DNA of 64,000 nucleotides, from NCBI GenBank assembly GCA_951406725.2, contig OX597822.1, positions 36,146,001 through 36,210,000 of the forward strand, given 5' to 3'. A program made the translations under genes and the position numbers. Source of the stretch: Octopus vulgaris. Taxonomy: Eukaryota. Under the pieces are notes generated by a model. It had not been told where the DNA came from. It ran no database searches and was given only the letters and a program-made list of their open reading frames with translations. This document shows, piece after piece, positions 1,573 through 5,785 of this stretch. Numbering within the stretch: position 1 is the stretch's first letter; every line of letters begins with the position of its first letter.

Positions 1573-1619
1573 CCATCACTGATAAGACCAAACAAGGTCG
1601 AAATCACATGATCTGATGG
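1573..1619 (+). ncRNA. Type I hammerhead ribozyme motif (G8A variant), copy 1
   Basis: Stem I CCATCA/TGATGG; core CTGATAA; stem II GACC-aaacaa-GGTC; GAAA; stem III TCA-ca-TGA; triplet ATC, predicted cleavage after 1613. Stem I extends into a hairpin spanning 1527-1663. Confidence 0.85.
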
Positions 1620-1928
1620 TCTTAGTGCTGGATGTAGTAGGGATTTATTTCTCTGCTAGCGATATAAACAAGCATGAATTTTGCACCCCAAAAAAGCCAA
1701 TGTAAGAGTTTATCTCGTGATAACTACACAGCAAAGTTTGTTCACATAGAACATGCGTGTTTAAGTGGGAATAAATATTACATCTCAGTTTTAATATTAC
1801 CTCCAACACTAATGTATATTTTTTAACAAGCTAACTCGCTAATCACGACACCAGTGCCTGTTTTAGCAGTGTCAGTGTATACATTGCTAGCAGGGAGATG
1901 AATCACTGTTGTCTCTAGCACTGAGTGT

Positions 1929-1974
1929 CCATCACTGATAAGACCAAACAAGGTCGAAATCACATGATCTGATG
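1929..1974 (+). ncRNA. Type I hammerhead ribozyme motif (G8A variant), copy 2
   Basis: Core, stem II and stem III identical to copy 1; stem I CATCA/TGATG; predicted cleavage after 1969; extended hairpin 1883-2019. Confidence 0.85.
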
Positions 1975-5604: not shown

Positions 5605-5785
5605 TCGAAAAATACCTTAGGAATGAGAACCCAGGTTTGAAATTTCCCCAAGACACCTGATGAGGGCTGGACGGTATATCAGCCGAAATGTTGTGTTAAC
5701 AACAAACAAGATGAGGACAAATATCCATCAAATGTAAACAATGTAAATAATGTACATAATTCCTCATCTCTTAAATATAGAACTA
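5499..5785 (+). mobile_element. tRNA-headed SINE-like element with (AAT)n linker and hammerhead-bearing tail
   Basis: tRNA-like head 5499-5572 with A box TGGCGTAGTGG (5506-5516) and B box GAGTTCAGTTCC (5549-5560); (AAT)n; hammerhead 5652-5697; no TTTT terminator inside. Tail is homologous to 56209-56268. Confidence 0.75.
5652..5697 (+). ncRNA. Minimal type I hammerhead ribozyme motif
   Basis: Stem I GACAC/GTGTT; canonical CTGATGA; one extra G; stem II GGCTG/CAGCC; GAAA; minimal stem III (A-TG-T, probably ACGT before CpG decay); triplet GTT, predicted cleavage after 5692. Confidence 0.8.

Follow-up and report, generated by a model that had tools for sequence, protein, structure and literature searches.

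Two type I hammerhead motifs lie one repeat unit apart in the window (the whole stretch of Octopus vulgaris DNA analysed here, 64,000 nt), and in both of them position 8 of the catalytic core is an A combined with C3. The locus therefore raises the question of whether C3·A8 marks two dead ribozymes or, as the headline of the earlier note on this DNA had it, a ribozyme that RNA editing activates. With a probability of roughly 0.9, we read the locus as a decayed copy, duplicated in place, of an old retrozyme-like repeat that is dispersed in the genome; its C3·A8 is most likely a neutral mutation and both hammerheads are likely inactive.

Inspection of the sequence confirmed what had been reported of the cores: the sequence CUGAUAA is present in both, placing A8 at 1584 and 1940, and C3 (1579 and 1935) and the other invariant core bases are intact. 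Hammerhead 1 occupies 1573–1619 and hammerhead 2 1929–1975, both on the + strand, and the letters C3 U4 G5 A6 U7 A8 A9 fall at 1579–1585 and 1935–1941. G12-A13-A14 (the GAA at 1600–1602), A15.1, U16.1 and C17 are intact in copy 1 (1600–1603, 1612, 1613) and lie 356 nt further on in copy 2, where C17 is at 1969. Thus U4, G5, A6, A9, G12, A13, A14, A15.1-U16.1 and H17 are all present in both copies, and the Watson–Crick 3-8 pair expected of an active hammerhead is missing from both. Helix I of copy 1 (1573–1578 with 1614–1619) is CCAUCA/UGAUGG, and copy 2 is the same save that a U at 1975 disrupts the outer pair; helix II (1586–1599 in copy 1) is GACC/GGUC with the loop AAACAA, and helix III is AUC/GAU. 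The earlier description omitted that the 10-nt palindrome typical of the family in helix III and its loop (1603–1612 and 1959–1968) is broken in both copies, having been lost to CpG decay at 1608 and 1964, and also that A8 is not rare in the family. Helix I is extended into a longer hairpin (1559–1631, + strand, outer arms 1559–1569 and 1621–1631; 1915–1987 in unit 2) that folds better than shuffled sequence (copy 1, z −4.8; copy 2, z −2.9 to −4.6; 0–1 of 200 shuffles equal it). An Rfam scan of the window gave no match at the gathering score, and the hammerhead call therefore depends on the motif together with the pairing of its helices in 235 copies of the family, where each of the 13 pairs in helices I–III is paired in 82–95% of copies.

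The hammerheads belong to a short tandem array on the + strand. Unit 1 (1387–1742) and unit 2 (1743–2098) are each 356 nt long, with 37% and 36% GC, respectively; they are spaced at 356 nt, are 88% identical across 295 nt, and both match subfamily B at 8/8 diagnostic sites. The beginning of a third, truncated unit follows at 2119–2181 as terminal redundancy (profile match, E 3e-14). Upstream is the 3′ fragment of a preceding unit (869–917; profile match 869–919; 90% identical to 1696–1744). It is separated from unit 1 by an insertion (918–1386) made up of unrelated interspersed repeats together with a (TA)n tract, and no target-site duplication exceeding 4 nt flanks this insertion. The region of this fragment matches the end of unit 1 at 45/53 positions (1696–1748) and that of unit 2 at 37/54 (2062–2114), and its closeness to unit 1 is consistent with local duplication. 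A further short fragment of the same family, without a hammerhead, lies at 2660–2745 on the + strand. No stop-to-stop frame of 70 aa is contained entirely within a unit, and none of 45 open frames, taken from the window's first 20 kb and from 10 kb upstream of the window, had a Pfam match.

A DNA search of the source genome returned at least 1130 candidates for this repeat. Scoring of 40 of the 1130 gave 54 matches, among which the highest identity outside the window was 79%, and a motif search that allowed any base at positions 3, 7 and 8 found 260 genomic matches; many family copies are 1.2-mers or dimers. Judged by its sequence, the window repeat has the build of a metazoan non-LTR retrozyme, and cleavage and circular RNA would belong to its ancestor. 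Its 356-nt period, with two units and flanking fragments, falls within the tandem or partial-tandem range of ∼170–400 nt; each unit has one type I hammerhead, though below the Rfam gathering score, and a GC content under 45%; the segment between the cleavage sites is highly self-paired, folding as a rod (z −6.35; 0/100 shuffles); and genomic copies are many and dispersed. This is the short-unit build described for metazoan non-LTR retrozymes, which are mobilised by a Penelope-like element (PMC7229834; bioRxiv 10.64898/2026.07.22.740005). Non-LTR retrozymes of coral, mussel and axolotl (PMC7229834) likewise combine a short tandem or terminally redundant unit (350–390 nt in mussel), low GC, one type I hammerhead per unit, a self-paired monomer and dispersed copies. 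Unlike them, the octopus family is known from sequence alone, its commonest core is U3-A8, and the copies seen are all old and decayed, with 10–12% divergence at non-CpG sites and 17–39% of CpGs retained. Both hammerhead CpGs are retained in only 16 genomic copies in the motif search, which argues against a young active burst. Among the copies seen, the best candidate for cleavage in the U3-A8 form is a dimer of the same family (L153; G000:C14:62021446-62021828, − strand; 320/350 identical), in which both cores are intact U3-A8 and neither helix III palindrome is broken. Our literature search, which covered main texts, found no report of this retrozyme-like family.

A lone mismatched copy is unreadable without its family. 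Tabulating position 8 over genomic copies, the check put forward earlier, showed that G8 is not the consensus: 192 of the 260 matches have A8, 60 have G8 and 8 have C or U. By combined state, 163 copies join A8 to a base other than C3 (a number obtained by subtraction from 260), and 37 are U3-G8, 29 C3·A8 and 23 C3-G8. All 53 C3 copies are accounted for by G8 (23), A8 (29) and C8 (1), and all 44 copies lacking both C3 and A8 by U3-G8 (37) and other states (7). The 163 are nearly all U3, a purine at position 3 appearing in 3 copies among the first 100 of the 260 matches. Positions 3 and 8 covary (association P 2e-4); the Watson–Crick pair between them is documented in PMC3884650. Within the 53 C3 copies, positions 7-8 read CG in 4, TG in 17, CA in 20, TA in 8 and otherwise in 4, and this even TG/CA split is expected from CpG decay. 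A second hammerhead family of the same genome, which has no CpG at positions 7-8, serves as a control: it is C3-G8 in 59/64 copies and C3·A8 in 2/64. Other lethal changes are equally common in the octopus repeat, the invariant G12 being A in 22/153 copies, and 16 of 28 C3·A8 copies examined are intact in the rest of the core and in helix II. C3·A8 mismatches are common debris of the family.

The prevailing U3-A8 core has precedents. It is a natural covariant (PMC3088659) and occurs in Schistosoma, with ∼1,300 matches in the hammerheads of Cercyon Penelope-like elements (PMC4209133), where a large repeat family likewise bears the same Watson–Crick swap at the 3-8 tertiary pair. The Schistosoma motif is minimal, in contrast to the full type I motif here with its 4-bp helix II and 3-bp palindromic helix III, and the window's own two copies differ from these covariants in being the mismatched C3·A8 form. 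Activity in a type III hammerhead was rescued by the G3:C8 swap only (PMC9901934), so the activity of U3-A8 is context-dependent. The available text of PMC6155905 and of bioRxiv 10.1101/2021.04.23.441226 has nothing on the 3-8 pair or on this family. The 37 copies with U3·G8, nearly all of them outside subfamily B, exceed what mutation from U3-A8 or C3-G8 would yield. A master with this wobble pair may have spread, and the order of the path may have been C3-G8 to U3·G8 to U3-A8. We also considered U3·G8 copies as retro-copied edited RNAs and rejected the idea, since G8 occurs in only 3/53 subfamily B copies and the family has no A-to-G excess.

Which base changed in the window was judged from subfamilies defined by eight flanking sites. 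Of 235 unique copies, a sample enriched for C3 and G8, 53 fall in subfamily B, 92 in A1 or A2 (a split of subfamily A that is only partly clean) and 90 are incompletely assigned. Assigned by flanking sites only, subfamily B has A8 in 48/53 copies and U3 in 44/53, with C3 in 7/53 (2 of them in the window) and G8 in 3/53; at positions 7-8 it has TG in 0/53, whereas TG occurs 210 times in its remaining CpG columns. A tree was built, after masking of positions 3, 7 and 8 and of the CpG columns, from the 112 copies in a set of 143 that have at least 170 aligned bases; in it, both window units sit within a clade of 41 (support 0.88), 37 of which carry A8. Similarly, the 58 genomic copies that have the window's loop II comprise 41 U3-A8, 9 C3·A8 (2 in the window), 4 purine3-A8, 3 G8 and 1 C8. 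A8 is therefore the majority state of both the family and subfamily B, and the odd base is more likely C3, which departs from the subfamily's U3. We consider a U3 to C change the probable route to the window's C3·A8, and a rough calculation gives this route 0.37–0.93, depending on the prior.

The alternative route, G8 to A at the CpG of a C3-G8 ancestor, keeps a smaller probability because of an excess of C3 and because of one particular copy. C3 arose independently 10 times among 57 copies with the window loop, compared with a T-to-C background of 4.1% (P 1e-4), although 2 of the 10 are subfamily A1 by their flanks. The copy in question (L071:1397-1675) belongs to subfamily B at 8/8 sites and has C3-C7-G8 and a very stable hairpin; it may be a double revertant, a recombinant or a rare master. 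Both routes are neutral decay, and since A8 is the family's commonest base, the window mismatch is most likely ordinary decay. The window shares the C3·A8 state, and hence the expected impairment of cleavage, with dead G8A hammerhead mutants (3-8 pair: PMC3884650; PMC9901934), but it probably reached that state from U3-A8 via position 3, not position 8. The simpler alternative in the earlier note, dead copies with one shared lesion, thus stands in outline; the lesion is more probably U3 to C than G8 to A, and its presence in both copies is most readily attributed to local duplication and gene conversion.

Evidence for conversion comes from the distribution of differences between the units, which are 89/90 identical within 1559–1648 (paired with 1915–2004) and 213/257 identical elsewhere (scan P 0.0008). 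Such a contrast between hairpin and rest was absent in the 29 other same-locus pairs listed. It could instead reflect selection on the hairpin rather than on catalysis, with the hairpin serving as a structural or regulatory RNA element or as an ordinary editing substrate. Several changes in the helix I extension do preserve or improve pairing, and two low-depth contigs of putative RNA runs resemble the locus closely (X1 record 3, over 1689–1937, with 1 difference; X4 record 13, over 2003–2306, with 4). Selection would lower the total divergence of the tract, whereas conversion makes private changes shared. Overall, the units diverge from the subfamily consensus at 49/309 and 47/308 positions (15–16%; family mean 14.8 ± 2.3%), and within the tract the total is not lowered (14–16% versus 13.9% for the family). 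The 90-nt tract holds 13 shared changes and 1 private change, compared with 16 shared and 22 + 21 private changes in 240 columns outside it, so that shared changes are enriched (13/90 versus 16/240; P 0.047). Moreover, paired CpG decay yields compensatory-looking changes by chance, the sole private change disrupts pairing in helix I, and hairpin stability places copy 2 at rank 52/95 (copy 1, 14/95). The near-identity of the hairpins at neutral total divergence points to gene conversion, and we regard selection on the hairpin as improbable. With conversion across the hairpin, A8 in copy 1 and A8 in copy 2 are not independent. The 5′ arm of the window variant has two exact genomic occurrences, both here, plus one elsewhere with a mismatch; the variant is unique in the genome and was never amplified.

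Under the preferred reading of a decayed, duplicated retrozyme-like repeat, the ancestor would have spread through an RNA that cleaved itself, circularised and was then returned to DNA, probably with Penelope-like elements doing the copying. Once inserted, the copy would have decayed, mainly at CpG sites, with position 3 probably changing from U to C or else G8 to A at the CpG of a C3-G8 ancestor. Duplication of the unit in place and later gene conversion across the hairpin would then have produced the identical cores. This account needs no editing step.

Unedited C3·A8 hammerheads might still cleave weakly as dimers, the locus then yielding some circular RNA. The two hammerheads are one unit apart, the intervening unit folds as the rod described above, and low activity persists in some natural variants of the core (PMC3088659). 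Conversely, single changes in this core region leave low activity (PMC9901934), and the 10-nt palindrome that allows a dimeric fold (PMC4209133) is the one broken here: its self-duplex is worth −3.8 kcal/mol in the window compared with −12.9 kcal/mol in an intact natural copy. The genome also has no copies derived from the window variant. Helix III is not predicted to be stable in either copy (probability 0.02 and 0.00). The predicted fold leaves A8 without a partner (0.997 and 1.0), within a 2x3 internal loop, and traps positions 4–7 against helix III. However, most intact relatives are also predicted to miss the hammerhead fold as monomers; folds separate the window poorly from them, and we give these predictions little weight. 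The C3·A8 mismatch leaves both window hammerheads likely inactive, and weak dimeric cleavage is, in our estimate, very improbable.

The remaining explanation is that at this single locus a dead retrozyme became an editing-gated RNA: the long helix I extension would attract ADAR, which would convert A8 to inosine, a C3-I8 pair would be restored and self-cleavage switched on, with selection accounting for the hairpin identity. The remaining invariant core bases are intact in both copies, the helix I extension pairs well, and the copies are far more alike in the hairpin than in the rest of the unit. A U on the 5′ side of an adenosine is a favoured ADAR neighbour, and U precedes A8 in the window cores. 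In addition, a contig from a related organism (X6 record 19) has 26 differences over 1696–1969, none of them in 1910–1969 among the differences listed. This 739-nt contig is ∼90% identical to the window and nearer unit 1 at several sites, and it is probably the orthologous locus. That it ends exactly at C17 (1969) was considered as proof of cleavage and rejected, since an assembly branch would suffice: a 31-letter word starting from variable position 7 (1939) likewise ends at 1969.

Against editing, C3·A8 copies are scattered over the subfamilies, so the window is not special, and there is no sign of spread or of a selected C3-A8 lineage. The hairpin has diverged at the neutral level of its relatives and the variant has not spread. 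The adjacent long stem was earlier credited with drawing editing to A8; as in site-selective ADAR substrates, a long hairpin does adjoin the adenosine, but A8 itself is predicted to lie unpaired in the junction, in a small internal loop outside the duplex, whereas ADAR requires duplex RNA (PMC5389660). Substituting G for A8 as a stand-in for inosine leaves the predicted core trap in place (0.89; helix III 0.01), although misfolding is also predicted for intact relatives, and the palindrome permitting a dimeric fold is broken. Family retrocopies carry no editing footprint: changes on the ribozyme strand were A-to-G at 501/11118 and T-to-C at 568/12115 (4.5% versus 4.7%; P 0.51), and a smaller copy set agrees. 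Contigs of four of the 24 sequencing runs listed, none of which is recorded as RNA, were aligned at 86% likeness, and most are paralogues; among the matches listed, which are contigs only, no high-identity, locus-specific contig of the putative RNA runs covers 1584 or 1940. Run X4 has 5 A-to-G places, neither 1584 nor 1940 among them, and the covering contigs look paralogous. The literature searched, in the text available, yielded no data on inosine at hammerhead position 8 and, at the level of paper listings, no natural editing-activated ribozyme. With C3·A8 so common, the variant unamplified, its decay equal to that of its relatives and no A-to-G excess, the editing headline is unsupported, and we consider an editing-gated ribozyme the least probable of these explanations, close to negligible.

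A natural ribozyme switched by editing would, if real, be a regulatory device of a new kind, but the evidence here speaks against one. What the locus adds is an apparently undescribed, old retrozyme-like family with the U3-A8 covariant as its main core, which matters little as it stands. The range of cores among its copies, C3-G8 in 23, U3·G8 in 37 and U3-A8 in most of 163, may preserve the trace of a compensatory path via wobble at a catalytic tertiary contact. Elsewhere in the window, a second, unrelated hammerhead-like motif (5649–5697, + strand) combines a canonical C3-G8 core with a helix II of 5 bp and a helix III that is minimal. A tRNA-like head and an (AAT)n tract lie upstream of this motif, which resembles the minimal hammerheads of Penelope type and has 64 genomic matches, 59 of them with C3-G8.
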